This document shows positions 7,810-48,086 of a DNA stretch of 48,086 nt, piece after piece (the first letter of the stretch is position 1; every line of letters starts with the position of its first letter). A program made the position numbers and the translations under genes. Source of the DNA: a virus. The stretch lies in the IMG/VR virus record IMGVR_UViG_3300019135_000007; one strand, 5' to 3'. The notes below the pieces were generated by a model, which saw only the letters and a program-made list of their open reading frames with translations, was not told the DNA's origin and ran no database searches.

Positions 7810-8604
7810 TTACACCCTTTCTTTAGTTTCTAATACTTCTTTGATTAACTCATAATAAGCATAAACTATAGGATTTTTAGCATCTGTCCATACTGCAGGT
7901 TTACCTTCATAAGCAGTAGAGTTAGCAAATCTGATTGACTTTGGTATAATGGTTTCATACATGGTAATATCTTGTTCTAAACAATACTTTCTAGCTTGTT
8001 GAAGCATTTCACTATGCAGATGGGTTCTACTATCTACCATCATGCCCACAACTCCTGCCACTTCTAGTTGTGGGTTTAAATTTTTTCTGAAGTCCTCAAT
8101 AGCTTCTAAAACCCTGACTAAACCCTTCACTCCAAACATTTCAGGTACAAATGGAATAATGACCTTATCAGCCACTGCTAAAGCATTTCCAGTAGGTAGT
8201 CCCATGCTTGGGGGAGTATCAATCAGTATGTAGTCATAGTGGTGTCTGATACTCTCAATGCCCTGTTTTAAAAGTTGGAATGGTAGTGGGTATTTATCCT
8301 GATGGGGCAGAACATCAAACTCCAAGAAACTCATATCTTCATTAGCAGGTAATAAGTCTAGGTTTTCATCTACTGAAATGATTACTTCATCTGTCCTTGC
8401 CCCACCCATAAGAACATCATAGATGGTGTTCATAATCTCACTGGGGTTCAATCCAAAGGCAATAGAACTGTTTCCCTGACCATCAGTATCAATGATAAGC
8501 ACCTTCTTGTTATATTCCCTAGAAAGAACTCCTGCAAGGTTGGAAACAAGGCTTGTCTTACCTACACCACCTTTATTCATAGCAATAGCATATGTAACAG
8601 TCAT
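7810..8604 (-). CDS. parA: ParA/Soj-type partition ATPase (small type Ib)
   Basis: 264 aa; deviant Walker A NKGGVGKTS and Walker B-like region ILIDTPPS. Confidence 0.9.
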   Translation of the reverse strand: MTVTYAIAMNKGGVGKTSLVSNLAGVLSREYNKKVLIIDTDGQGNSSIAFGLNPSEIMNTIYDVLMGGARTDEVIISVDENLDLLPANEDMSFLEFDVLPHQDKYPLPFQLLKQGIESIRHHYDYILIDTPPSMGLPTGNALAVADKVIIPFVPEMFGVKGLVRVLEAIEDFRKNLNPQLEVAGVVGMMVDSRTHLHSEMLQQARKYCLEQDITMYETIIPKSIRFANSTAYEGKPAVWTDAKNPIVYAYYELIKEVLETKERV

Positions 8605-8686: not shown

Positions 8687-8710
8687 AAAAAAGAACTCTT
8701 TTCAGAGTTC
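8687..8710 (-). terminator. Rho-independent terminator overlapping the stop of 8702..9316
   Basis: Minus sense GAACTCT-GAAA-AGAGTTC followed by TTTTTT. Confidence 0.75.
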
Positions 8711-9316
8711 TTCAGGCTCAATTTCCATAGTATCTAGCTTGTCTGAACCACAATAATGACACTTCCCTGCCTTCATATCTACACTTTCTCCACATTCCAA
8801 ACAGTATCTATCTAATGTTGCCTTGGGCTTCCCCATCAATTCATCCAGTGTAGTTCCTAGGATTCCAGCATATCCTTCAAACTTATCTTCTGCCCCATTT
8901 CCTCTTTCCATTTGGTAGACATATGGAGTAGAAACCTCAAGCCATTCTGCCACTTCTTGTGCAGTCTTGTTCTTTTTCTTTCTTAACTCTTTTAAAGCCT
9001 TGCCCCACTTTTTCTTGTTATCTTTCAGTTCCTGTTGAGCATCCAGTCTATCTGCAGATGTTTCAATCTTAATATCCTGTACTTCAGGGATGTATTGGAA
9101 CAAATTCTCTACTGTTGTTTCATAGATATGTGCAATAGCAAAAGCAGTTTCTAACTGGATGTTGGTATATCCCTCTACCCCTCTTTCAATTCTGCTGTAA
9201 TGATTGTCAGAGATACCTAACCCTAACTGTCTTAATCTTAATGCCACATCCTTTTGTGTCCATCTTCTTTCATTTCTCAATCTTGTTAATTCCCATGTAT
9301 TAGGTCTGATAGCCAT
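8702..9316 (-). CDS. Double XRE-HTH protein with a C-terminal zinc ribbon
   Basis: Two HTH units (WTQKDVALRLRQLGLGISDNHYSRIERG and KTAQEVAEWLEVSTPYVYQMERG) plus CLECG...CHYCG. Its start abuts the recombinase stop (TAAATG). Confidence 0.75.
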   Translation of the reverse strand: MAIRPNTWELTRLRNERRWTQKDVALRLRQLGLGISDNHYSRIERGVEGYTNIQLETAFAIAHIYETTVENLFQYIPEVQDIKIETSADRLDAQQELKDNKKKWGKALKELRKKKNKTAQEVAEWLEVSTPYVYQMERGNGAEDKFEGYAGILGTTLDELMGKPKATLDRYCLECGESVDMKAGKCHYCGSDKLDTMEIEPEEL

Positions 9317-10117
9317 TTAAGACACCTTCCTTTTTAAATTGTTATTTGCTCTGCCCCAAACTTGTTTGGATACTATTGGTTCAAAGTTAAGATTGATAAG
9401 TTCACCATTGTAGATATATCTGCCACAGTAAAGTTCATTCTTCAGGATTTTATTTACACTGTTATGTGTCCATTCCTCACCTTTACTGTTTCTGTATCCT
9501 TCCTGATTGAGCCTGTCAGCAACCTTTCTGATGGATAGACCATCAAAGGCTACCCAGTGGAATATTTTCTTTACCACCTTGGCTTCTTCAGGGATGATTT
9601 CTAGTTGGTTTTCTTCAGTCACCTTGTATCCATAAGGTTTTCTGCTAATGTAGTGACCTTCCCTTAATTTAGCCATCTTTGCAGGCTGTACCCTATTCTT
9701 GATGTTGTCCCTTTCTTGTTCTGCAAATATCCCTAGGAGTTGAAAGGCTAGTTTTCCCACTGGTGTATCTGTATCCAAATCCAAATCACCAATATAGATG
9801 GATGCTCCTAGCTGATTGATTTCATGCTTGGTATTAAGGGCAATCCTTAAATCCCTTGAAAATCTGTCTGCCTTGTAAACATAAACAGTGTCTACTGGGT
9901 TTTCCTTTATAAACTCCATCATTCTCTTGAGTTCAGTTCTATCTTCCTTTGCCCCACTCTCACCTTTTTCAATGAAGTGTTCAATAATTTCATAACCTTT
10001 GTAGACTGCCCATCTATGAGCCTGATTTACTTGGTCATCTAAAGAAATTCCCTTCACTTGGTCTTGAGTGGATACCCTTGCATAGACAACTGCTCTTTTT
10101 AACTCTTGTTCTAGCAT
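9317..10117 (-). CDS. Serine recombinase (resolvase catalytic domain plus partial 'recombinase' domain, 266 aa)
   Basis: VVYARVSTQDQ nucleophile motif and YVYKADRFSRD. The KPYGYKV...IRKVADRLNQEGY segment is typical of large serine recombinases, but there is no zinc-ribbon or coiled-coil domain. Confidence 0.9.
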   Translation of the reverse strand: MLEQELKRAVVYARVSTQDQVKGISLDDQVNQAHRWAVYKGYEIIEHFIEKGESGAKEDRTELKRMMEFIKENPVDTVYVYKADRFSRDLRIALNTKHEINQLGASIYIGDLDLDTDTPVGKLAFQLLGIFAEQERDNIKNRVQPAKMAKLREGHYISRKPYGYKVTEENQLEIIPEEAKVVKKIFHWVAFDGLSIRKVADRLNQEGYRNSKGEEWTHNSVNKILKNELYCGRYIYNGELINLNFEPIVSKQVWGRANNNLKRKVS

Positions 10118-36864: not shown

Positions 36865-37509
36865 TTAATTAATAGGTTTACCTTTTCTTTTGTAGTCTGT
36901 TCTCAACTTATACATAAAACCAATAAGTGTTTTGTCATCATATAATTCAAAGTCCCCCACCATCTTTCCTTCACCCTTCTTGAAGGGAAGAAAAACATGT
37001 GTGCTAAAGTCTCTACCGTTCCCTCTTTTCTCCTTGTGCTTCAGGTTCTGCCTACTCCAAGGAGTATCTACAAACAGATGAACATAATGCTCTCTCATAT
37101 TGTCTAAATCCTGAATAGTTACATCAATCCCCTTTTGCCAATCATCATCATGGTCATACAAGACTTTAAATCCATGTGGCTCATAAAGTTCTTTCATCCT
37201 GATAATGGCATGTTCTTCTCTTACCAGTGACTTATAAGCCCTCTTTGCTCTTGCTTCCAAGCCTAATCTATACCTATCATAATCAGTCATTAGCCTTTCC
37301 ATTGGGAATAGTGGGATAGTTTTTTGAAGGAACTTTTCTACAAATTCTTTTTCAGTGGGTACTAAATGAGGGTATCTCTCTCTTAATTCACTGTAAGCAG
37401 AAATACCTTTATAAACCCCTTTGCCATATTCTACTGGATTGAAAGAGTAGTTTAGATAGAATGTTGGAATGAGTTTAAGCTGATTTTCAAAGTCCTTTGA
37501 AGATAACAT
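36865..37509 (-). CDS. Hypothetical protein (214 aa)
   Basis: ORF 36865..37707 runs through a promoter and leader. The realistic start is MLSSKDFENQ (ATG at 37509) after GTAAAGGGTGG. No family recognised. Confidence 0.55.
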   Translation of the reverse strand: MLSSKDFENQLKLIPTFYLNYSFNPVEYGKGVYKGISAYSELRERYPHLVPTEKEFVEKFLQKTIPLFPMERLMTDYDRYRLGLEARAKRAYKSLVREEHAIIRMKELYEPHGFKVLYDHDDDWQKGIDVTIQDLDNMREHYVHLFVDTPWSRQNLKHKEKRGNGRDFSTHVFLPFKKGEGKMVGDFELYDDKTLIGFMYKLRTDYKRKGKPIN

Positions 37510-37708
37510 ATAAATCCACCCTTTACATTGTTTTGTCCTTGTGTCAACTTGATGATTACTTGAGCCTAAACAAAAAGGGTTCACTACCCTGAACCATTGG
37601 TTAGGATAGCAAACCCCTTTTGCTTCTCTACATAGTTCCATCTGCCCCACCTGTGTACTATGCAGAACAAAAGATGATGAAGAACACCTTTTCTTATCAC
37701 CCTTCACT

Positions 37709-37735: not shown

Positions 37736-38476
37736 TTAGGCAGTTTCATAAAATTTTTTTAAAACTTTTTTCATTTTTTCCAATGCAGTGTTCCTGATTT
37801 CCCTGACTGTTGTGAAGTGTAAACCCAACTCATAGCCTGCTTCTCTTAAGGTATAATCCCTGTTAATGACCAGTTCCAAGACATTTCTTTGCTTATCAGA
37901 TAGGCTATTCCAAGCCACTCTTAAAGCTAGGTCTTTGTTGGTTAGGGTGTTTTCATCAAATAGGTCTGTTTCAATCCCTAATACATAAATACCCTCATGC
38001 TTAAGAGCATTGAATGGGGCAGTACAATCAGTCCCTTCTGCAAAGAGTACATCAAAACTCTCTGTACTTTGGAGCATATCATCAAACTTTTGCCCATTCC
38101 TTAAGTAGTTAAAAATCCCATACCCCAGTTTCTTCTCAATATAGTGGGAAAAATATACTTCACTGGATGGGTCATAATCACAAAGGGCTTCATAAAATTG
38201 TGTCCTGCCCTCCTGTAGCATATCCTCAAAGCCTTCTTTATCCACTGTGTTAGCCCACATGTCATTATGGATATTGAACTTCCTTAAGCCCCTTCTAGGA
38301 TTGATAAGGATTTCTTTTATCATTGGCTCATATATACTGTAAAGGTCTTGAGCAATCTTCCAAGCCTGTTCCTTTTCTTCTTCATTGTGGGAGTGATAGT
38401 GTTCAATGAATAGTTCTACTAATTCCTGCTTCTTCTCTTTTGGGAGTGCTTGCAATTCTTCAATAGTGCTATACAT
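37736..38476 (-). CDS. Sigma-70 family RNA polymerase sigma factor (phage-encoded)
   Basis: ORF 37736..38521, with the likely start MYSTIEELQ after AAAGGAAGGA. The region 4 HTH is LSDKQRNVLELVINRDYTLREAGYELGLHFTTVREIRNTALEKMKK. Confidence 0.78.
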   Translation of the reverse strand: MYSTIEELQALPKEKKQELVELFIEHYHSHNEEEKEQAWKIAQDLYSIYEPMIKEILINPRRGLRKFNIHNDMWANTVDKEGFEDMLQEGRTQFYEALCDYDPSSEVYFSHYIEKKLGYGIFNYLRNGQKFDDMLQSTESFDVLFAEGTDCTAPFNALKHEGIYVLGIETDLFDENTLTNKDLALRVAWNSLSDKQRNVLELVINRDYTLREAGYELGLHFTTVREIRNTALEKMKKVLKKFYETA

Positions 38477-38516
38477 ACCAATCCTTCCTTTGCCATTTGG
38501 CAGTTGTTGTCCTTGT

Positions 38517-38533
38517 GTCAACTTGATGTTGAC
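38517..38533. promoter_or_regulatory. Perfect palindrome GTCAAC-N5-GTTGAC upstream of the sigma gene
   Basis: Plus strand reads gtcaac ttgat gttgac. Confidence 0.5.
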
Positions 38534-40989: not shown

Positions 40990-41185
40990 GTTTCTCTCCT
41001 TCCTTCACAATCTCTTTTAGGGAAAATCTTTTTATCCTGTGACCTTCTGCATCCCCTTCATCCAGTTCTACCTGTATAGGCAGTAGATGGTGGTTGTAAA
41101 GGTTTTTAGAATCTATATAAATCACTGTCCCATTCCCTTTATACAGGAAGGAGTTGCAGAAAACCCTGTCACCCTTCTTCAACAT
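40982..41185 (-). CDS. Hypothetical protein (67 aa)
   Basis: ORF track. Confidence 0.45.
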   Translation of the reverse strand: MLKKGDRVFCNSFLYKGNGTVIYIDSKNLYNHHLLPIQVELDEGDAEGHRIKRFSLKEIVKEGEKHV

Positions 41186-41339
41186 CTATATCTTTCCTTT
41201 CCATTGGCACTAGGAGTTCTCCAACCCTTACCAAGTAAACTCCCTGCCCCATCATGACTACTTCACCATGCTCCCCTAATGGCTTGAAGGCAGGAGATAG
41301 GATTTTCACCCTATCCCCAACATAGATAATTTTGTTCAT
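41169..41339 (-). CDS. Hypothetical protein (56 aa; below the ORF-track cutoff)
   Basis: My own reading: MNKIIYVGDRVKILSPAFKPLGEHGEVVMMGQGVYLVRVGELLVPMERKDIDVEEG. AAGGA SD lies 6 nt upstream; its stop overlaps the next start. Confidence 0.4.
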   Translation of the reverse strand: MNKIIYVGDRVKILSPAFKPLGEHGEVVMMGQGVYLVRVGELLVPMERKDIDVEEG

Positions 41340-41348
41340 GCTCTGTCC

Positions 41349-41645
41349 TTAAGTCAACTTCTTGTTGACAAAAGAGGATTTTTTAACCTTTGCCTTGCCT
41401 TTTTTCTTTCCTGCCTTGCCATTAGCCATTTGTAGGGAGATACCTGCAAAGCTATTCCATACCTCTCTAGGGATTTTCATAGTAAAGTAAGCCACACCAC
41501 CATGCTCACACAATAGGGTTACTGCATCCTGTTCTACATAGGCAGTCAACATATGCTTGTCATTCTCAATAACTAGCTTCTCTCCATAAACTGTTCTCTC
41601 TTTGGATACCATTTCATTGACTTGCTTTTTCTCCATTCTAAACAA
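41349..41645 (-). CDS. Hypothetical basic-tailed protein (98 aa)
   Basis: ORF track; preceded by the CA-rich leader. Confidence 0.5.
   Translation of the reverse strand: MFRMEKKQVNEMVSKERTVYGEKLVIENDKHMLTAYVEQDAVTLLCEHGGVAYFTMKIPREVWNSFAGISLQMANGKAGKKKGKAKVKKSSFVNKKLT
41353..41369. promoter_or_regulatory. Perfect palindrome GTCAAC-N5-GTTGAC
   Basis: Plus strand reads gtcaac ttctt gttgac. Confidence 0.5.
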
Positions 41646-41689
41646 CCCTTTCTATATTGTTTTGTTTTTGTGTTTCTACTGTAATTATA

Positions 41690-41705
41690 TCAACTTGAAG
41701 TTGAC
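41690..41705. promoter_or_regulatory. TCAAC-N5-GTTGAC palindrome overlapping an extended -10 (TGATATAAT)
   Basis: Minus sense TTTGTCAACTTCAAGTTGATATAATTACAGTAG. Confidence 0.5.
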
Positions 41706-41729
41706 AAAGCACTGCAAAAATCATGGTTG

Positions 41730-43136
41730 CTATACCAACTTTATCCTGTTGGCTAATACATTCTTTACATCCTTTTGCCCAGTGATAATCAGCATCTTGC
41801 CTTCCTTGCATTTATCTTTATGCTTGGCATAGATGGCAGGGAATACTGTTACATCCCTGTTTCCTTCAGGAGTATTTAAGACTAGGAAGCACATTAACTG
41901 CCCCCTCTTTGTCTTGATTTCTTTTACCCTTGTGACTTCTCCACCAATGGTTGCTTCTGCCCCTTGTGGGACTGAATCATAAGGGATAAAGCTATATTTA
42001 TCTAATGGATGCCCTGACAGATATAGTCCTAGCACTTCCATTTCCCACCTTAATTTAGTGCTATCAGGGTTTAGCTTATCTTCTTCAGTAATGAGTGGCT
42101 TTCCTTCTCTTTCCTTTTTTGGTCTTTTGGACTGGTAATATTCCATAATTTCAAGCCTATCATCTGTTTCATCAAAGGCTCCTGCCTTGATAAGCCCTAC
42201 AATGCACCCTTTCTTTACCTCTGAACCCTTAAAGACATTGGAAGAAAGAAAATCTTCAAAGTTGGCATAGGGTCTATTCTCAATTATCTGCTTAATGGCT
42301 TTTGTCCCAACACCCCTGATGGCATTTAAGGCAAATAGGATTTTTCCATTAACCTCTGTAAACTCATGAGCAGATGAATTGATTAGTGGGGCAGTCACTT
42401 CAATACCCATTTCCCTAGCTTCTTCTACATACTTGGCTATTTCTTCTAACTTCTTGGATTTGGAATCCTCTTTATCTTCATCCTGAAGTTCTGCAGACAT
42501 AGTGGAAGCCATGAATTTAACAGGATGATTAGCCTTCAGATAGGCAGTCTGATAAGTGACCAAGGCATAGGATGCAGAATGTGACTTGTTAAAGAGGTAT
42601 TTTGCCCCTTTCTCTATCCAATTCCAAAGGATAACTGCTAAATCCTTGTTGTAGCCATTCTTTACACAACCTTGAATAAACTTATCTTTTAGCTTTGCCA
42701 TTTCTTCAGGAAGTTTCTTACCCATAGCTTTCCTTAAATAATCCCTTTCTCCTGCAGTAAACCCTGCAAATACACCTGCTATCTCCATCATCTGTTCTTG
42801 ATATATTAGCTGTCCTTTTGTTGGGGCTAAAATTGGCTCTAGGTCAGGATGGATATATTCAGGCTTGATTTCTCCATTGGCAACCTTGATATACCTTTCT
42901 ACCATTGTTAGCCCATCCTCACCCTTAATGGTGAGTGGACTTGGTCTATATAAAGCTATAATGTCTATGACTTCATCAAAGGTAGTGGGCTTAATACTCC
43001 TTAAAAGCTGTTGCATCCCTACACTTTCTACCTGAAATACCCCTGCAGTGTCACCCTCTTGGAGTAGCTTAAAGGTTTTTTCATCATCCATAGGGATGTT
43101 GAGAATATCAAACATTGTCATACTCCTTTCTGTCAT
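41730..43136 (-). CDS. dnaE: DNA polymerase III alpha (DnaE) C-terminal fragment (fingers onward, with HhH and OB regions)
   Basis: 468 aa beginning ...FDILNIPMDDEKTFKLLQEGDTAGVFQVES...ALYRPSP, i.e. directly after the point where the upstream fragment ends. Confidence 0.9.
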   Translation of the reverse strand: MTERSMTMFDILNIPMDDEKTFKLLQEGDTAGVFQVESVGMQQLLRSIKPTTFDEVIDIIALYRPSPLTIKGEDGLTMVERYIKVANGEIKPEYIHPDLEPILAPTKGQLIYQEQMMEIAGVFAGFTAGERDYLRKAMGKKLPEEMAKLKDKFIQGCVKNGYNKDLAVILWNWIEKGAKYLFNKSHSASYALVTYQTAYLKANHPVKFMASTMSAELQDEDKEDSKSKKLEEIAKYVEEAREMGIEVTAPLINSSAHEFTEVNGKILFALNAIRGVGTKAIKQIIENRPYANFEDFLSSNVFKGSEVKKGCIVGLIKAGAFDETDDRLEIMEYYQSKRPKKEREGKPLITEEDKLNPDSTKLRWEMEVLGLYLSGHPLDKYSFIPYDSVPQGAEATIGGEVTRVKEIKTKRGQLMCFLVLNTPEGNRDVTVFPAIYAKHKDKCKEGKMLIITGQKDVKNVLANRIKLV

Positions 43137-43156
43137 TTTGGCAACTTAATGATTAC

Positions 43157-43393
43157 TCAACCCACCAAAATAACCTCTTTGTCTACATCTAGCACAACCA
43201 CTTCAAGTCCTAGATAGTACCTATAGTGAAGGGTATCAGTATATTTAGGCTGAATGGTCTTTTGTTCATGGTCAAAAGCTATGGCAGAATACTTGTCCAA
43301 CACAATCTTGTTTGCTTCTAATCCTTTTGCTCTTTGCTCATAAATCAGGTCATTAATCAGAGCAGTCACTGTACTTGACTTTTTGTTTTCCAC
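43157..43393 (-). CDS. 78-codon ORF inserted between the two dnaE fragments (GTG start)
   Basis: GAGGGGG SD lies 7 nt upstream and the start is 2 nt after the dnaE-N stop. No family recognised. Confidence 0.5.
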   Translation of the reverse strand: MENKKSSTVTALINDLIYEQRAKGLEANKIVLDKYSAIAFDHEQKTIQPKYTDTLHYRYYLGLEVVVLDVDKEVILVG

Positions 43394-43395
43394 TG

Positions 43396-45108
43396 TTATG
43401 CCCCCTCTGCATTGATTAAGTCCACTGTCTTGTTAATGACAGACAGAGTTTTAACACCTAACAGGTCAAATTTCACTAACCCTAATTCCTCACATACTCC
43501 CATATCTACTGCAGACATTGGCTCCCCATACTTATCTTCCATAAGAGGAATCACTTCATCCAGTGGTCTGTCTGCTATGATGTAAGCACAAGCATGTTGG
43601 GAAAAATGCCTTACCCTTCCCTCAATCTGTTTGGCATACTTCCATATAGAGTGTTCATACTGCTTCATGTACTTTCTAAATTCTTCACTTTCATTGTAGG
43701 CTTCTTCTAGTGTAATAGAAGGTCTGTCAGGAATACTTTTAGCTATGGCATCACCAAGGCTATATGGGTAGCCACACACCCTTACAACATCCCTGATTAC
43801 CCCTTTAGCACCAAAGGTTCCATAAGTAACTACAGAGCAAACTTTGTCATGACCATATTTCTCTTTAAGATACCTGACCACTGCCCCTCTGTCTGCAAAG
43901 TCCACATCAATATCAGGTAGGGAGTTCCTTTCAGGGTTTAAGAATCTTTCAAACAGTAAGCCATATCTGATAGGGTCTAGTTCCACTATCCCTAGGAGCC
44001 ATGAAACCAGTGAGCCACCTGCAGAACCCCTTCCATAGCCCACCACTATTCCATTATCCCTTGCCCATTTAATGAAGTCCTGAACAATCAGGAAGTATCC
44101 ACTAAAACCTTTATTGATGATAACATCAAACTCATACAAAATTCTGTCTACATACACCTTCTGTTCCTGTTTGGAAAGTTTATTTAATCCCCTTCTTGTC
44201 CATCCTTCTCTGCATAGTTGCTTCAAATATTCTTCTTCAGTCTTAAATGGGGCAGGAACAGGGAATTTAGGTAACTTTATGCTTGTATCAATCTCATAAC
44301 CCTCTACCTGTTCTGCAATCTTTACAGTGGTTTCTACTGCTTCCCTTGCCACTGCTTCAGGAACACCAGTAAACTCCATCAGTTGCTTTATAACTTCCTC
44401 ACCTTCTGACCAATAGTTATGCTTATAAACATCACTATCAAAGTCCCCTATCTTGGTAAGAACCCTATGGGTTAGGTAATCATCTTTCCTTAAGTAGTGA
44501 ACATCTTGAGTGGCTACAATGCCTACCCCTAAATCTTTATACCATGAAGCATAAGCCTGATTGACTTTCTTCTGCATGGTATGTTCATTAGGTTGTATCT
44601 CAAGGTAAAAATCATTACCAAAAATCTTTTTAAATCTTTTGATGGTCTTTTTAGCCCCAAGGTAGTCCCCTTCAGCAATCTGCCTTTGACTTACCCCTGC
44701 CAAACATGCTGATAAGCAGATAAGACCATCCTTGTACTGTTCTAATAATTTATAATCTATCCTTGGTCTGTTATAAAAGCCTTTTAAGTGGGAAATAGTT
44801 GTTAGCTTAAGGAGATTTTTTAAGCCTTGAGTGTTCTTTGCTAAAAGAACTAGATGGTAATGTCTTGTGCCTTTTTCTTTGATAGAAATATCTTCTGTGA
44901 TATATACCTCATTCCCTACAATAGCTTTCACACCATGTTTTCTTCCTGCCTTGATAAAATCCCAAAAGTCATTCATCACACCATGATTAGTTAATGCTAC
45001 TGCAGGTTGCCCTAATTCCTTGGCTCTTAAGACAATTTCTTCAGCACTTGCCATCCCATCCAATGTACTCATTTGGGAGTGTAAGTGGAGTTGACAAAAG
45101 AAGTCCAT
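43396..45108 (-). CDS. dnaE: DNA polymerase III alpha (DnaE) N-terminal fragment (PHP, palm, thumb, start of fingers)
   Basis: 570 aa; PHP start QLHLHSQMSTLDG; ...LPDIDVDF...; ends VKFDLLGVKTLSVINKTVDLINAEGA, then a TAA stop. Confidence 0.9.
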   Translation of the reverse strand: MDFFCQLHLHSQMSTLDGMASAEEIVLRAKELGQPAVALTNHGVMNDFWDFIKAGRKHGVKAIVGNEVYITEDISIKEKGTRHYHLVLLAKNTQGLKNLLKLTTISHLKGFYNRPRIDYKLLEQYKDGLICLSACLAGVSQRQIAEGDYLGAKKTIKRFKKIFGNDFYLEIQPNEHTMQKKVNQAYASWYKDLGVGIVATQDVHYLRKDDYLTHRVLTKIGDFDSDVYKHNYWSEGEEVIKQLMEFTGVPEAVAREAVETTVKIAEQVEGYEIDTSIKLPKFPVPAPFKTEEEYLKQLCREGWTRRGLNKLSKQEQKVYVDRILYEFDVIINKGFSGYFLIVQDFIKWARDNGIVVGYGRGSAGGSLVSWLLGIVELDPIRYGLLFERFLNPERNSLPDIDVDFADRGAVVRYLKEKYGHDKVCSVVTYGTFGAKGVIRDVVRVCGYPYSLGDAIAKSIPDRPSITLEEAYNESEEFRKYMKQYEHSIWKYAKQIEGRVRHFSQHACAYIIADRPLDEVIPLMEDKYGEPMSAVDMGVCEELGLVKFDLLGVKTLSVINKTVDLINAEGA

Positions 45109-45293
45109 TAGAATCTTCCTTTCTTGTGGGAGTTATTTTTATACTGGGGCTTCTTCTTCTGCCCTATTTCCTTAATCTTGTCCTGTAAAAGTCTAATTTG
45201 CCTTTTTTGATTTTTATTTTTCCTTCTTAAGTTGGCTATTGTCCTTTTTAGGATGCTGATTTGTTCCTCAAGTTTCTTAACTTGTTCATCCAT
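45108..45293 (-). CDS. Hypothetical basic coiled-coil protein (61 aa)
   Basis: ORF track; its stop overlaps the dnaE-N start. Confidence 0.45.
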   Translation of the reverse strand: MDEQVKKLEEQISILKRTIANLRRKNKNQKRQIRLLQDKIKEIGQKKKPQYKNNSHKKGRF

Positions 45294-45324
45294 CCCTTTT
45301 GTCCCCTTTATATTGTTAATAAAG

Positions 45325-45396
45325 CCCCCTTGCTAGGATTTGAACCTAGTCTAAAGGATTAGAAGTCCTTTGTGCTATCCATTACACCACAAGGGG
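45325..45396 (-). tRNA. tRNA-Arg (anticodon UCU), no encoded CCA
   Basis: Hand fold: acceptor CCCCTTG/CAAGGGG, anticodon arm AAGGA-CTTCTAA-TCCTT, T-arm CTAGG-TTCAAAT-CCTAG. Confidence 0.8.
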
Positions 45397-45401
45397 ATGT
45401 A

Positions 45402-45478
45402 TGGTCTGCCTAGCAGGACTTGAACCTGCAACCTTCCCATTAGGAGTGGGATGTTCTATCCAATTGAACTATAGGCAG
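45402..45478 (-). tRNA. tRNA-Arg (anticodon CCU), CCA encoded
   Basis: Hand fold: acceptor CTGCCTA/TAGGCAG, anticodon arm TCCCA-CTCCTAA-TGGGA, T-arm GCAGG-TTCAAGT-CCTGC. Confidence 0.8.
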
Positions 45479-45580
45479 TTGATTGAGGGAGATAGAGTGA
45501 AGGGAAGTGGCTGTTCCATCTGCCCCCCACACAACCTCACTTCATTGGGAGCATCCCCCTCAAGTTGTCCTTGTGTAATC

Positions 45581-45609
45581 ATTGTATCATGTAAACTTAA
45601 AGATGACAA
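45581..45609 (-). promoter_or_regulatory. Sigma-A type promoter for the tRNA-Arg pair and dnaE operon
   Basis: -35 TTGTCA (45604-45609), 17 nt, -10 TACAAT (45581-45586). Confidence 0.65.
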
Positions 45610-45625
45610 GAAGTTTTTTTTAAAA

Positions 45626-45802
45626 TTATTGATTGATTAGTTTGGGTAAATCTAAAAGGATTTTAATGATACCTGAAGCAATAGTGGCTCCCTTTTCTTC
45701 ATCATCAAGCATTTCCCTGTCAAAGCCTAAATCCTCTACAGTCAGCCCTCTTTCATACTCCAATTTCTCAATGAATTGTAATTGCTTTTCAGTAGCTTTC
45801 AT
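45626..45802 (-). CDS. Hypothetical protein (58 aa; below the ORF-track cutoff)
   Basis: My own reading: MKATEKQLQFIEKLEYERGLTVEDLGFDREMLDDEEKGATIASGIIKILLDLPKLINQ, after GAAAGGTAGG. Confidence 0.4.
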   Translation of the reverse strand: MKATEKQLQFIEKLEYERGLTVEDLGFDREMLDDEEKGATIASGIIKILLDLPKLINQ

Positions 45803-45887
45803 GGTTAATACCTACCTTTCTTTAATTTGTCCTTAAACCCTTCCATCCAAAAGATATAGACAATATACAACTCTAAAATCCTGTCCT

Positions 45888-48086
45888 TTATAAACTGCAT
45901 GATTGACTTCCACACCCCTTGCATTGTGGGCATCCTTCTACCAAGACAAATTCCTTGTGACCACAATTTCCACATGTCCAGTTTTCATACTTGCCCTTTT
46001 TCTGTGGGGCAGACTGCACTTCAGGTTGCTCTTTTTCCACTTCCTCATTGTTCTCTAGGGACAAAATTTGCTCACTTCTTGAGCCATCCCTATAGATAGT
46101 GCCCCCCTTACATCCTGACTTGTAGAGATTTATATAAACTGCTTCACACTGCTCTACAGTGTAATCTGCAGGAGCATTAACTGTTTTGCTGATGGAAGAA
46201 TCAATATATTTCTGTGCTACTGCCTGAACTGCCACATGTTCTTCAGGGGATAAGTCCATAGCACCCACAAACCATTCAGGCAACTTGTCTAAATGAGGGT
46301 TTCTATCCATGAAGGCTTTAGCTACACCTGCATACTGGATTGTACTTCCTATCCTAGACAATCTGTGATACTTCATAGCAAAGTGTGGCTCAATACCTGT
46401 ACTTACAGAACCATGAATATCTAACATAGAAGGTGTCATACTTCCTGTGGTTCCTGTAGGAGCAAAAGTATTAAGAGTAAGGTTCCTGATACCATACTTT
46501 TCAATATCCTCTTTGATTTCTTTAGGGAGCCTTTGAACAAAGCCTGATTGCAGATACTTTTCTTTATCAAAGAATGGGAAGCATCCCTTTTCTTTAGCTA
46601 GTTCAATGGACATTTTATAGCTTTCATCCCTTAAGAATTTCATTAGTTGCTCAAAGACTTTAAGACCTTCAGGAGAACCATATTTTACTCTTAAGGCAAT
46701 AAATAGGTCAGCTACACCCATTCCACCTAGACCTACCCTTCTTTCACCCTTCTGCCAATCTTCCATAGCCTTATCAAAGTAGAAGGTCAAGTCAATGGCA
46801 TTGTCTAGGAATCTTACACCTGTTCTAATGGTCTTTCTTAATAAGTCCCAGTCAATTTCATAAATATCACCCAGTTCATCTTCCCCTACTTTCTTAATCA
46901 TCCTACCAAAGTTGACTGCAGAAAGATTGCAAGTAGAGTTGCCCAAAATTGGTTGTTCTCCACATGGGTTAGTAGCCATTACTAGCCCTAAATACCATCC
47001 ATTGTGATTTCTATTGACTGTATCAATAAAAATGACCCCCGGTTCTGCTGAACTCCAATTGGACTTCATTATCTTGTTCCACATATCTTTAGCCCTGATT
47101 TTTTTATAAACAATAACAGGTAATCCTGCCTTTTCCCATTTCTCAATATCTGCATCCCAAAGTTCATCATAAAGAGGGTGTGTAGTGTCAGGGAACTTCA
47201 ATTCCCATTCTAAATCCTTCTCTACTGCTTCCATGAACTTGTTAGAGATTAGGATTGAACTGTTATTGCCTTCCATGAAGCCTTGCTTATTTTTAGCCCC
47301 AATAAAGTCCTCAATGTAGTTAGGGTCATTTTCATCATTGGTATAGAACACATCAGGATGCCAATCATGGATAGTGAGCATTTGTGCCCCTCTCCTATTG
47401 CCTTGATTGACAAAATCAGTGAGTTGGCTAAACTGGTTCCCAATATAAACTGCCCCTGCAGATTGTCCTTTTGTCTTGCTTAATGGGGAATATCTTGGTC
47501 TGAACACTGAAAGGTTAGTTCCTACTCCCCCACCCCTAGCCATGATTTCAGAAATTCTACCCATATGGTGGAAGATAGCCTGTCTACTATCCCTTCCCTT
47601 TTCAGGAGCATATGGGGCAGGTTCAACATTAATGACATAGCAGTTAAAAAGTGTAACCTCTGAATCATCCCCTGCACCTGTCAAAATCCTTCCTGAAGGC
47701 ACTAAATAGAAGTTCTCTAATGCTTCCTTAAACTCTTTATAAGCCTTCTCTCTAGCTTCAGGTGTTTGCTCTACAGAAGCTAAAGCCTTTGCCACCCTGT
47801 CTGCAGTTTCTGCATACCTTACTTCAAGAAGGGCATCTATAAGGTTAATGTCCTGCACAAACTCCTGCCCTACCTGATACTCCACACCATCAGCAGTTTG
47901 CAGTTCCATAATTACCTTGTCACCCTGAATATCCTTTACAGTAGCAATTTCCCTGACTGGATACTTACCATCTTTCACTAGGGTTACTACTGTTGCACCC
48001 TTCTTGATGAATTTTTTCTTATCCAGTGTTTTCTTTGCATATCTTGTAAGATGAATTTTTCTGTGAAAGCCCTGTAATTCTACTCC
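45888..48086 (-). CDS. nrdJ: Class II (adenosylcobalamin-dependent) ribonucleotide reductase; the start codon lies across the junction at 128-130
   Basis: The active-site loop ATNPCGEQPIL and C-terminal Cys-rich tail CGNCGH...CPQCKGCGSQSC are typical of NrdJ. The frame stays open to the window edge. Confidence 0.88.
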   Translation of the reverse strand, partial: GVELQGFHRKIHLTRYAKKTLDKKKFIKKGATVVTLVKDGKYPVREIATVKDIQGDKVIMELQTADGVEYQVGQEFVQDINLIDALLEVRYAETADRVAKALASVEQTPEAREKAYKEFKEALENFYLVPSGRILTGAGDDSEVTLFNCYVINVEPAPYAPEKGRDSRQAIFHHMGRISEIMARGGGVGTNLSVFRPRYSPLSKTKGQSAGAVYIGNQFSQLTDFVNQGNRRGAQMLTIHDWHPDVFYTNDENDPNYIEDFIGAKNKQGFMEGNNSSILISNKFMEAVEKDLEWELKFPDTTHPLYDELWDADIEKWEKAGLPVIVYKKIRAKDMWNKIMKSNWSSAEPGVIFIDTVNRNHNGWYLGLVMATNPCGEQPILGNSTCNLSAVNFGRMIKKVGEDELGDIYEIDWDLLRKTIRTGVRFLDNAIDLTFYFDKAMEDWQKGERRVGLGGMGVADLFIALRVKYGSPEGLKVFEQLMKFLRDESYKMSIELAKEKGCFPFFDKEKYLQSGFVQRLPKEIKEDIEKYGIRNLTLNTFAPTGTTGSMTPSMLDIHGSVSTGIEPHFAMKYHRLSRIGSTIQYAGVAKAFMDRNPHLDKLPEWFVGAMDLSPEEHVAVQAVAQKYIDSSISKTVNAPADYTVEQCEAVYINLYKSGCKGGTIYRDGSRSEQILSLENNEEVEKEQPEVQSAPQKKGKYENWTCGNCGHKEFVLVEGCPQCKGCGSQSCSL
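47960..48086. repeat. Right copy of the 127-bp direct repeat
   Basis: Identical to 1..127. Confidence 0.95.

Follow-up and report, generated by a model that had tools for sequence, protein, structure and literature searches.

A DnaE-type phage polymerase encoded by two neighbouring genes, with a slot of variable content between them

T4-related phages are reported, in the work of Petrov and Karam, to have a family-B polymerase that is split into gp43A and gp43B. Of the family-B polymerase of PhiKZ, DNAP-N and DNAP-C form a stable and active 1:1 complex (PMC13648687), and split family-A polymerases have been reported in cyanophages (bioRxiv 10.1101/325100). For family C, to which bacterial DnaE belongs, the group 2.2 jumbo phages have a split 'minimal' Pol III alpha with a two-protein core (Iyer et al. 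2021, PMC7824862), and three metagenomic dnaE loci are among the 'fractured genes', whose halves carry split inteins and are separated by a homing endonuclease gene (Dassa et al. 2009, PMC2677866). The published dnaE splits that we found in open-access text are either intein-mediated or concern the minimal two-protein core of jumbo phages. In the laboratory, Pfu polymerase has been split within its fingers by engineered termination and reinitiation, and the two chains give an active enzyme (PMC3061061). Here we describe the dnaE gene of the IMG/VR virus record IMGVR_UViG_3300019135_000007, a DNA of 48,086 nucleotides (nt) that we refer to as the window, in which the gene consists of two parts, dnaE-N and dnaE-C, with a further open reading frame (ORF) between them.

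In our opinion this phage most probably makes its replicative family-C polymerase as two separately translated chains which join non-covalently; the split is old and fixed, and its junction would have become a slot for other genes. This reading is drawn from gene arrangement and comparison of sequences. An original prediction, made from the window alone, had described a DnaE in two ORFs, and indeed all three ORFs are present on the minus strand (Table 1). A second metagenome sample gave the same 3.9 kb, base for base over 3,887 nt, and the split is therefore no assembly error.

The two products together have what is expected of a family-C (DnaE) polymerase: a PHP domain, a palm with three Asp, and fingers, HhH and OB. 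In Pfam, dnaE-N matches PHP (1.8e-46) and DNA_pol3_alpha (6.4e-87), and dnaE-C matches positions 17-166 of the 166 of DNA_pol3_finger (1.7e-51), HHH_6 (1.7e-16) and OB (2.3e-06). Of PHROG 405, a DnaE-type polymerase family, dnaE-N covers positions 44-617 and dnaE-C positions 623-1077. What is missing is the single chain. Translation stops after A570, 280 nt with a complete separate ORF follow, and dnaE-C restarts in another frame; no two of dnaE-N, the 78-amino-acid (aa) ORF and dnaE-C share a reading frame. The end of dnaE-N reads ...LSVINKTVDLINAEGA (protein ...VDLINAEGA), followed by TAA at 43398-43396. Two bases past this stop the 78-aa ORF begins with GTG at 43393-43391, and it ends with TGA at 43159-43157. 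It was correctly predicted that a GTG-start ORF fills the gap; its Shine-Dalgarno sequence (SD) lies in the tail of dnaE-N, which suggests that the two genes are translationally coupled. The 20-nt spacer of the prediction has to be revised. It is obtained only if dnaE-C is taken as the longest ORF, from ATG 43136, while the start backed by relatives, by the SD GAAAGGAG (43123-43130, 7 nt 5' of the ATG) and by the JGI gene call (461 aa, MFDILNIPMDD...) is ATG 43115-43113, which makes the true spacer 41 nt long.

The position of the break can be stated precisely. We joined the last 84 residues of dnaE-N to the first 209 of dnaE-C and aligned this virtual fusion to Pol III alpha of E. coli. The result is a single alignment with residues 497-789 (2hnh and others, E ~1e-70), in which nothing but a 5-residue gap marks the place where the two pieces meet, INAEGA corresponding to I572-A577 and FDIL to L584-A587. 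The break is in the surface loop equivalent to E. coli A577-P583, 22 residues past the catalytic D555, presumably directly after the helix with which the fingers domain begins, and the protein has lost no residues there; the predicted breakpoint in the fingers, with essentially nothing missing, is therefore borne out. All catalytic Asp are on dnaE-N, where D399, D401 and D548 are the counterparts of E. coli D401, D403 and D555 (D548 and D555 being aligned). Thus the active site is composite, with the catalytic carboxylates on dnaE-N and the fingers, HhH and OB on dnaE-C.

The arrangement is not peculiar to this phage. A search of 5.8 billion proteins returned 17 clusters of close dnaE-N homologues (59-66% identity), all of them 571-583 aa long and without the finger domain; more distant matches have scattered lengths. 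The contigs of these clusters measure about 45-53 kb, and some are found in assemblies of Priestia megaterium, P. endophytica and Halobacillus litoralis. Among deposited phages only phiT1 (Rossellomorea phage, PV767480) is similar; it is cultured and plaque-forming and has an N gene ~60% identical to that of the window. Its genes have the same arrangement: gp20 of 573 aa, gp19 of 49 aa and gp18 of 469 aa (MFDILDIP...). With ten further loci that we fetched, the window and phiT1 make up 12 parsed loci of this clade, whose N genes are 57-89% identical. The gene is split in 18/18 close N-fragment clusters and in 12/12 loci. Profile scans of genome and metagenome contigs had no clade member among the matches listed, cellular DnaE being dominant there (best 44%), and there was none among the matches listed in a first scan of IMG/VR.

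Across the 12 loci the stop of the N gene comes 2-8 residues past '...D(Q/L)IN', and the C gene restarts at (M)FDIL each time. Every C gene has its own GAAAGG-type SD 7-10 nt 5' of the ATG. The variable N tail after '...IN' contains, in all 12, a purine-rich SD-like run just 5' of the next start codon. Invariant positions number 212/570 in N and 187/461 in C, and pairwise N-N and C-C identities (means 70.7% and 73.8%) correlate with r = 0.90. In 18 relatives PDIDVDF and KFD are invariant, as are H8, H10, D17, H42, E67, H83/H85, C135, D202 and H204, which are of the PHP metal-ligand type and which we take to be the nine PHP ligands known from Taq and Mtb DnaE1. Both halves are conserved and co-evolving, as expected of naturally split two-subunit phage polymerases, and they are adjacent on the same strand and SD-coupled. 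The nearest relatives outside the clade are unsplit ORFs of 1070-1155 aa. We infer that the split arose once in the window's clade.

Over the 12 loci the number of ORFs in the gap ranges from 0 to 3, most of them unrelated (Table 1), and the 78-codon ORF is not the cause of the split. On this point the original prediction, in which dnaE was split by a 78-codon insert, does not stand: the split is found throughout the clade and persists without any insert in the loci L012 and L178, and other loci have other ORFs in the same place.

Table 1. The two-piece dnaE of the window, and what lies between the two halves at the 12 loci of its clade
Feature	Positions	Strand	Description
dnaE-N	43396..45108	minus	570 aa; PHP, palm, thumb, first fingers helix; by ORF, Pfam, PHROG and alignment
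Shine-Dalgarno GAGGGGG of the 78-aa ORF	43401..43407	minus	inside the last dnaE-N codons, 7 nt 5' of GTG
78-aa ORFan between dnaE-N and dnaE-C	43157..43393	minus	GTG start; by ORF list
Spacer 5' of dnaE-C	43116..43156	minus	41 nt; holds most of the 16-mer AGTAATCATTAAGTTG and the Shine-Dalgarno GAAAGGAG
dnaE-C	41730..43115	minus	461 aa, MFDILNIP start; rest of fingers including FNKSH, HhH duplex-binding domain, OB fold
Slot, window			78-aa ORFan
Slot, phiT1			49-aa ORF, unrelated to the 78-aa ORF of the window
Slot, L012			empty; 11-nt gene overlap
Slot, L178			empty; 15-nt spacer, in frame, TAG AAAGGGAATGATAAC ATG (TAG and four codons)
Slot, L010, L179 and L180			nucleoside 2-deoxyribosyltransferase
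Slot, L011			famA
Slot, L176			famA and deoxyribosyltransferase as separate genes
Slot, L174			famA and 60-aa ORF
Slot, L175			famA, 43-aa ORF and 72-aa ORF
Slot, L177			three small ORFs

How could such an enzyme work? The N product would provide the PHP domain, the palm and thumb, the three catalytic Asp and the first fingers helix, and the C product the rest of the fingers with its contacts to deoxynucleotide (dNTP) and template, the HhH duplex-binding domain and the OB fold. The two would assemble 1:1 and, by analogy with the split polymerases already described, would form a stable active complex; the helix that is kept on N (equivalent to E. coli 561-577) may complete the fingers fold of C and serve as a tether. 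We suppose that the genes form one operon with translational coupling; the tail of dnaE-N would encode the ribosome-binding site of the next gene. A slot could be tolerated at this place because termination and reinitiation would keep the halves co-expressed, and the junction would be a site at which small accessory genes are gained, lost and swapped, riding on the expression of replication genes. The 78-aa ORF would then be the present occupant, with no demonstrable role in the split, and the split itself an old fixed trait of Bacillaceae phages or phage-plasmids of roughly 45-53 kb, no recent insertion. How little may be needed for it is seen in L178, where a TAG and an in-frame restart separate the halves; as this locus is nested in the tree, its state is probably secondary.

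One point weighs against a polymerase of two separate chains. In L178 the halves are in frame with only TAG and four codons between them, and read-through to a single chain would be possible there. Judging from those ORFs that were screened for other polymerases, the split DnaE is likely the sole polymerase of the window.

Elsewhere in the window a ParA-type ATPase, a double-HTH regulator and a serine recombinase are encoded at 7810-8604, 8702-9316 and 9317-10117, all on the minus strand. In Priestia and Halobacillus assemblies relatives form contigs of their own, of ~50 kb, and one of these contigs is labelled a plasmid. Taken together, these genes and contigs suggest the temperate lifestyle of a phage-plasmid.

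The original prediction considered a two-piece DnaE unusual. Measured against the open-access literature this is true, but among metagenomic phages the same cut is common. As a control set we took 85 phage DnaE loci from IMG/VR, with 32-39% identity to dnaE-N, and 29/85 of them stop within 0-20 residues of the window's cut point. These form a second, distant clade of uncultured phages, on contigs of up to 230 kb (L253:3965-8365; also L002, L003, L205, L209-213, L224, L227, L231, L232, L236, L237, L239, L244, L246, L250 and L252-258). In those loci whose contig extends far enough downstream, the N gene is followed by a 63-82-aa ORF, which L002 lacks, by a DEDDh exonuclease of ~235 aa and then by the C gene. 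The exonuclease is DnaQ-like (Pfam RNase_T, 7.5e-11). The C gene opens with a 24-residue Cys-containing extension (F.CGC.F), then continues with the IDFD...FQLES segment, and a virtual fusion of the two halves aligns across the joint with E. coli alpha 495-764. In two loci the slot has an additional ORF, one of 229 aa at L227:2124-2813, with an HTH and, by eye, an HNH-like C-terminus (in Pfam a weak HTH only), and one of 836 aa at L237:6051-8561. Neighbour-joining bootstrap is 100 for the 29-locus second clade and likewise 100 for the 12-locus clade of the window. We also considered whether the two split clades are sisters; that grouping is recovered in 18/100 bootstraps only, and the loop may have been cut either a single time or twice.

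This second clade permits a bolder view, namely that the loop of E. coli alpha 577-583 is a general permissive, perhaps even advantageous split point of family C, used at least 2 times or else very anciently, with the slot as an expression site for accessories of the replisome and of nucleotide metabolism. The split itself would then be selected and no neutral scar. The accessories in question would be the DnaQ-like proofreader in the second clade and the deoxyribosyltransferase, famA and the 78-aa ORF in the clade of the window, and the gain could lie, for example, in swapping the clamp- and DNA-binding C part as a module, in stoichiometric coupling, or in housing the slot genes. We offer this as a tentative extension, and we doubt it more than we believe it.

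Unlikely, in our opinion, is that the slot proteins (the 78-aa ORF and famA) are accessory subunits of the polymerase that bridge or regulate its halves. It is true that a slot between coupled polymerase genes is conserved in position, that in the second clade it holds a replisome partner, the DnaQ-like exonuclease, and that famA, a clade-specific family of ~120 aa with 6 proteins, is present in 4/12 loci including the most basal, L011. However, the slot is empty in two loci and has unrelated occupants in several. Because it is empty in those two, no slot protein is required for the polymerase. Further, the 78-aa ORF is unique to the window's phage, and famA resembles in fold only uncharacterised Bacillus-phage proteins that have no known link to a polymerase. 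Given L011 and the three other loci, famA may be the ancestral occupant of the slot.

The 78-aa ORF has a good SD and fills the slot almost exactly. Checking it for homologues had been suggested, with a remnant of a homing endonuclease or an adaptor to clamp or exonuclease in mind. The outcome is that no homologue exists outside the phage and that no signature of a nuclease or a mobile element is visible: among 5.8 billion proteins it finds itself alone, tblastn gives no match in phage records, and there is no match in Pfam and a single weak one in PHROG (E 0.049). Its AF2 model (pLDDT 45) is too poor for a fold search. By eye it shares KIVL...Y.GLE..V...VG with famA, at similar spacing and with a like order of predicted helices and strands; we rejected homology with famA as unproven, on an hhalign E of 0.085, a shuffle test with hmmsearch (158/3000, P 0.053) and the lack of any PHROG in common. 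The model of famA is better (pLDDT 71); in BFVD it matches only uncharacterised proteins of Bacillus phages, e.g. SP-15 and CP-51 (E 8e-7 to 2e-3), and nothing significant in PDB, where the best fold match is 2pk8 (E 0.049).

Three observations on the other occupants may be added. The deoxyribosyltransferases at L010:5721-6344, L179:5719-6327 and L180:5719-6327 have an N-terminal extension of ~60 aa that is weakly like the famA profile (in a search of 15 sequences, E 7.5e-6 for the whole protein and 4e-4 for its best stretch), and it is possibly a famA fusion or remnant. A conserved element, TTGCAACCTAAnAGATTGCA, occurs 3' of the deoxyribosyltransferase gene, just upstream of dnaE-C, in 4/4 loci with this gene (L010:6335-6365, L176, L179 and L180); its TTGCAA arms are self-complementary and might form a hairpin, or the element may mark the end of an inserted cassette. 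Finally, gp19 of phiT1 (L001:4652-4801), the 43-aa ORF of L175 and a 57-aa ORF of L177 are small acidic slot ORFs with a common N-terminus, MK(I/V)T(M/I)...(A/I)K.Y(L/I). One pair of them gives a blastp E of 0.023, and they may constitute a second recurrent slot family.

We think it improbable that a mobile element recently cut an intact dnaE, as in T4-like gene 43 or Aeh1 nrdA, and left the 78-aa ORF or the motif beside it as a remnant. Splitting of dnaE by endonucleases does happen. In L234:3974-8744, L242:2235-7003 and L249 the gene is split at a different place, ~57 residues downstream (...ATALG | RPGPL), with no room for inteins, and the gap is occupied by a 356-aa ORF in which Pfam matches a homing-endonuclease-associated repeat, though below its cut-off (E 3.5e-4). 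The gene is unsplit in the sister contigs L238, L241, L243, L247 and L248, which are almost identical, and the split of these three looks like a recent endonuclease-driven fracture, unlike the fixed and endonuclease-free split of the window's clade. The HNH-like ORF in the slot of L227 and the 16-mer beside the 78-aa ORF, which recurs once in the window, could be cited in the same sense. On the other hand, a split made by a homing endonuclease is sporadic among close relatives and has the endonuclease or its remnant at the break. Here every clade member is split although N genes are as little as 57% and at most 89% identical, two loci lack an insert and the others have mostly unrelated ones. 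The 78-aa ORF is without homologues or a nuclease motif, and the 16/19 match of the spacer motif does not exceed chance. The cut could go back to an endonuclease insertion long ago or to a simple nonsense-plus-restart event.

Another two-part DnaE was seen in Bacillus phage Jayan (L261, PQ299153, 30698-34105), with two 'DNA polymerase' coding sequences (CDSs) of 410 aa and 634 aa and a 76-aa ORF between them. The site differs, being near the PDxDxD motif, and this could be an intron or another fracture. The phages PK-1 and PS1 have the same 37.8% identity to dnaE-N as Jayan, and there the match is under one annotated CDS.

As for the motif, the original prediction held that the spacer resembles an element upstream of gene 36865..37509. 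There is indeed a 16-mer, AGTAATCATYAAGTTG, with exactly two copies in the window, at 43142-43157 and 37545-37560, both on the minus strand and both 25-35 nt upstream of a start codon. The first copy (AGTAATCATTAAGTTG) shares one base with the TGA of the 78-aa ORF; the second is 3' of a terminator-like hairpin and 5' of an ORFan gene beside a sigma-factor gene (37736-38521). The resemblance as such is not above chance, however, since at 16/19 identity ~780 occurrences are expected among all position pairs of the window and ~6 among upstream regions only. For an extended match of 31/44 the expectation is ~6 genome-wide and 0.05 among upstream regions, with an alignment window that was chosen post hoc. 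No counterpart is present at the junction of the clade relatives (12 loci). We rejected AGTAATCATYAAGTTG as a promoter or the end of a mobile element: it has no sigma-70-like site and no counterpart in relatives, and is at chance level at 16/19. It is possibly a two-copy element, borderline in its 31/44 match, with no bearing on the split.

We give very little credence to a rejoining of the two pieces into one chain, whether by trans-splicing of a split intein, by a group I or group II intron, or by frameshifting, bypassing or read-through. A split intein is recognized by Hint blocks, by Cys or Ser at position 1 and by His-Asn followed by Cys, Ser or Thr, and its halves add roughly 90-120 and 35-40 residues. 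Neither half of dnaE has a Pfam match to an intein or Hint domain. In the fusion alignment to E. coli alpha neither junction has surplus residues for intein halves: dnaE-N stops 4 residues past the helix and dnaE-C opens at MFDIL, so its first residues are Met-Phe, and Cys, Ser and Thr are absent from position +1. No homing endonuclease was found between the halves, where the 78-aa ORF has only the weak match mentioned. An Rfam scan of 41000-46000 by E-value gave two tRNAs only and no intron, and the 311-nt RNA of the junction folds like its shuffles (z = -0.02). The predicted absence of intein and intron is thereby upheld. Rejoining certainly has precedents, as cyanobacterial DnaE and the metagenomic 'fractured' dnaE are rejoined by split inteins (PMC2677866), and the halves of L178 are in frame across a single TAG. 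But in the window three frames, 280 nt and a complete ORF stand in the way, and in L012 the halves overlap by 11 nt (ATGTCTCTTGA); therefore nothing is there to splice out.

A fusion of dnaE-N to the 78-aa ORF by -1 frameshifting was considered too and rejected, because a canonical slippery heptamer is absent and such a product would in any case stop short of dnaE-C. In a crude consensus scan no sigma-70-like promoter or terminator was predicted in the slot or at either junction. Matches to the minus-strand promoter consensus in the dnaE span lie only inside the dnaE coding sequences, and their total is no higher than in shuffles. The two tRNA genes (45325-45396 and 45405-45478, minus strand; Rfam 66 and 71 bits) are just upstream of dnaE-N, and phiT1 has a tRNA-Arg in the corresponding region.

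We find it hardly credible that the split dnaE is decaying into a pseudogene while the phage relies on the polymerase of its host. A frameshifted dnaE would superficially resemble a split one, and many truncated cellular DnaE entries with junk tails are just that. Here, however, both halves are intact in 12 diverged genomes, evolve in step (r = 0.90) and keep the residues of catalysis and the metal ligands of PHP, and the arrangement of stop, start and ribosome-binding sites is precisely conserved; decay would give scattered, non-homologous breaks as in the cellular artefacts.

Such artefacts did turn up among DnaE homologues of 565-720 aa with 41-45% identity, which we had considered as further splits; those that were read end in junk tails, and we rejected them as frameshifted cellular genes. 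The gut Lachnospiraceae 'DnaE' entries P0023, P0034, P0055, P0057, P0112 and P0113, of 565-720 aa and with nonsense tails, mimic split polymerases in length-based screens.

If a polymerase of two non-covalent chains is the right reading, several things follow. Full-length family-C polymerases would work in this form, phage splits being otherwise documented for families A and B, and splits of DnaE where split inteins rejoin the pieces. The locus offers a natural, evolution-tested split site for the engineering of Pol III alpha by fragment complementation or domain swapping, and a tractable system for communication between palm and fingers across a chain break, in a clade that has a culturable member, phiT1. 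It would also show how the junction within an essential gene can become a hotspot at which accessory genes settle. For annotation, adjacent 'DNA polymerase III alpha' CDSs in these phages should be regarded as no frameshift errors, and neither merged nor flagged as pseudogenes.

How, then, does the locus compare with the known systems? Closest is phiT1, with the same clade, breakpoint and gene order, whose two halves are already annotated as 'DNA polymerase III subunit alpha'; a discussion of its split was not found in the open-access literature. The original prediction pointed to T4-like phages with gene 43 split by a mobile insert. As far as a two-subunit enzyme is concerned this parallel most likely holds, judging from sequence, but the mobile insert as the cause does not. 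As in PhiKZ and the T4-related phages, a replicative polymerase is encoded by two genes, and its chains would join without a covalent link and both contribute to the active site. Those enzymes are of family B and are cut at a palm insertion, whereas the window has a family-C enzyme that is cut in a fingers loop and has a slot of variable cargo. The polymerase genes of PhiKZ are far apart, while dnaE-N and dnaE-C are adjacent and coupled.

The fractured dnaE loci have in common with the window two ORFs, another gene between adjacent halves and a phage-like context; they differ from it in their intein halves and endonuclease, neither of which the window has. The split-intein site of cyanobacterial DnaE, before CFNKSH, is ~190 residues downstream of the window's cut. 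With the minimal alpha of jumbo phages it shares a family-C catalytic module that is predicted to re-form from two phage proteins, but the jumbo-phage enzyme is without PHP and other domains, its genes are distant from each other and it exists beside a family-B replicase, whereas the window has the full DnaE architecture with one cut and neighbouring halves. The Pfu split, finally, also consists of a stop and a nearby restart in the fingers, and L178 (TAG, 12 nt, ATG, in frame) resembles a natural equivalent of it. The Pfu split is a laboratory artefact in a family-B enzyme, whereas that of the window is a conserved natural arrangement.

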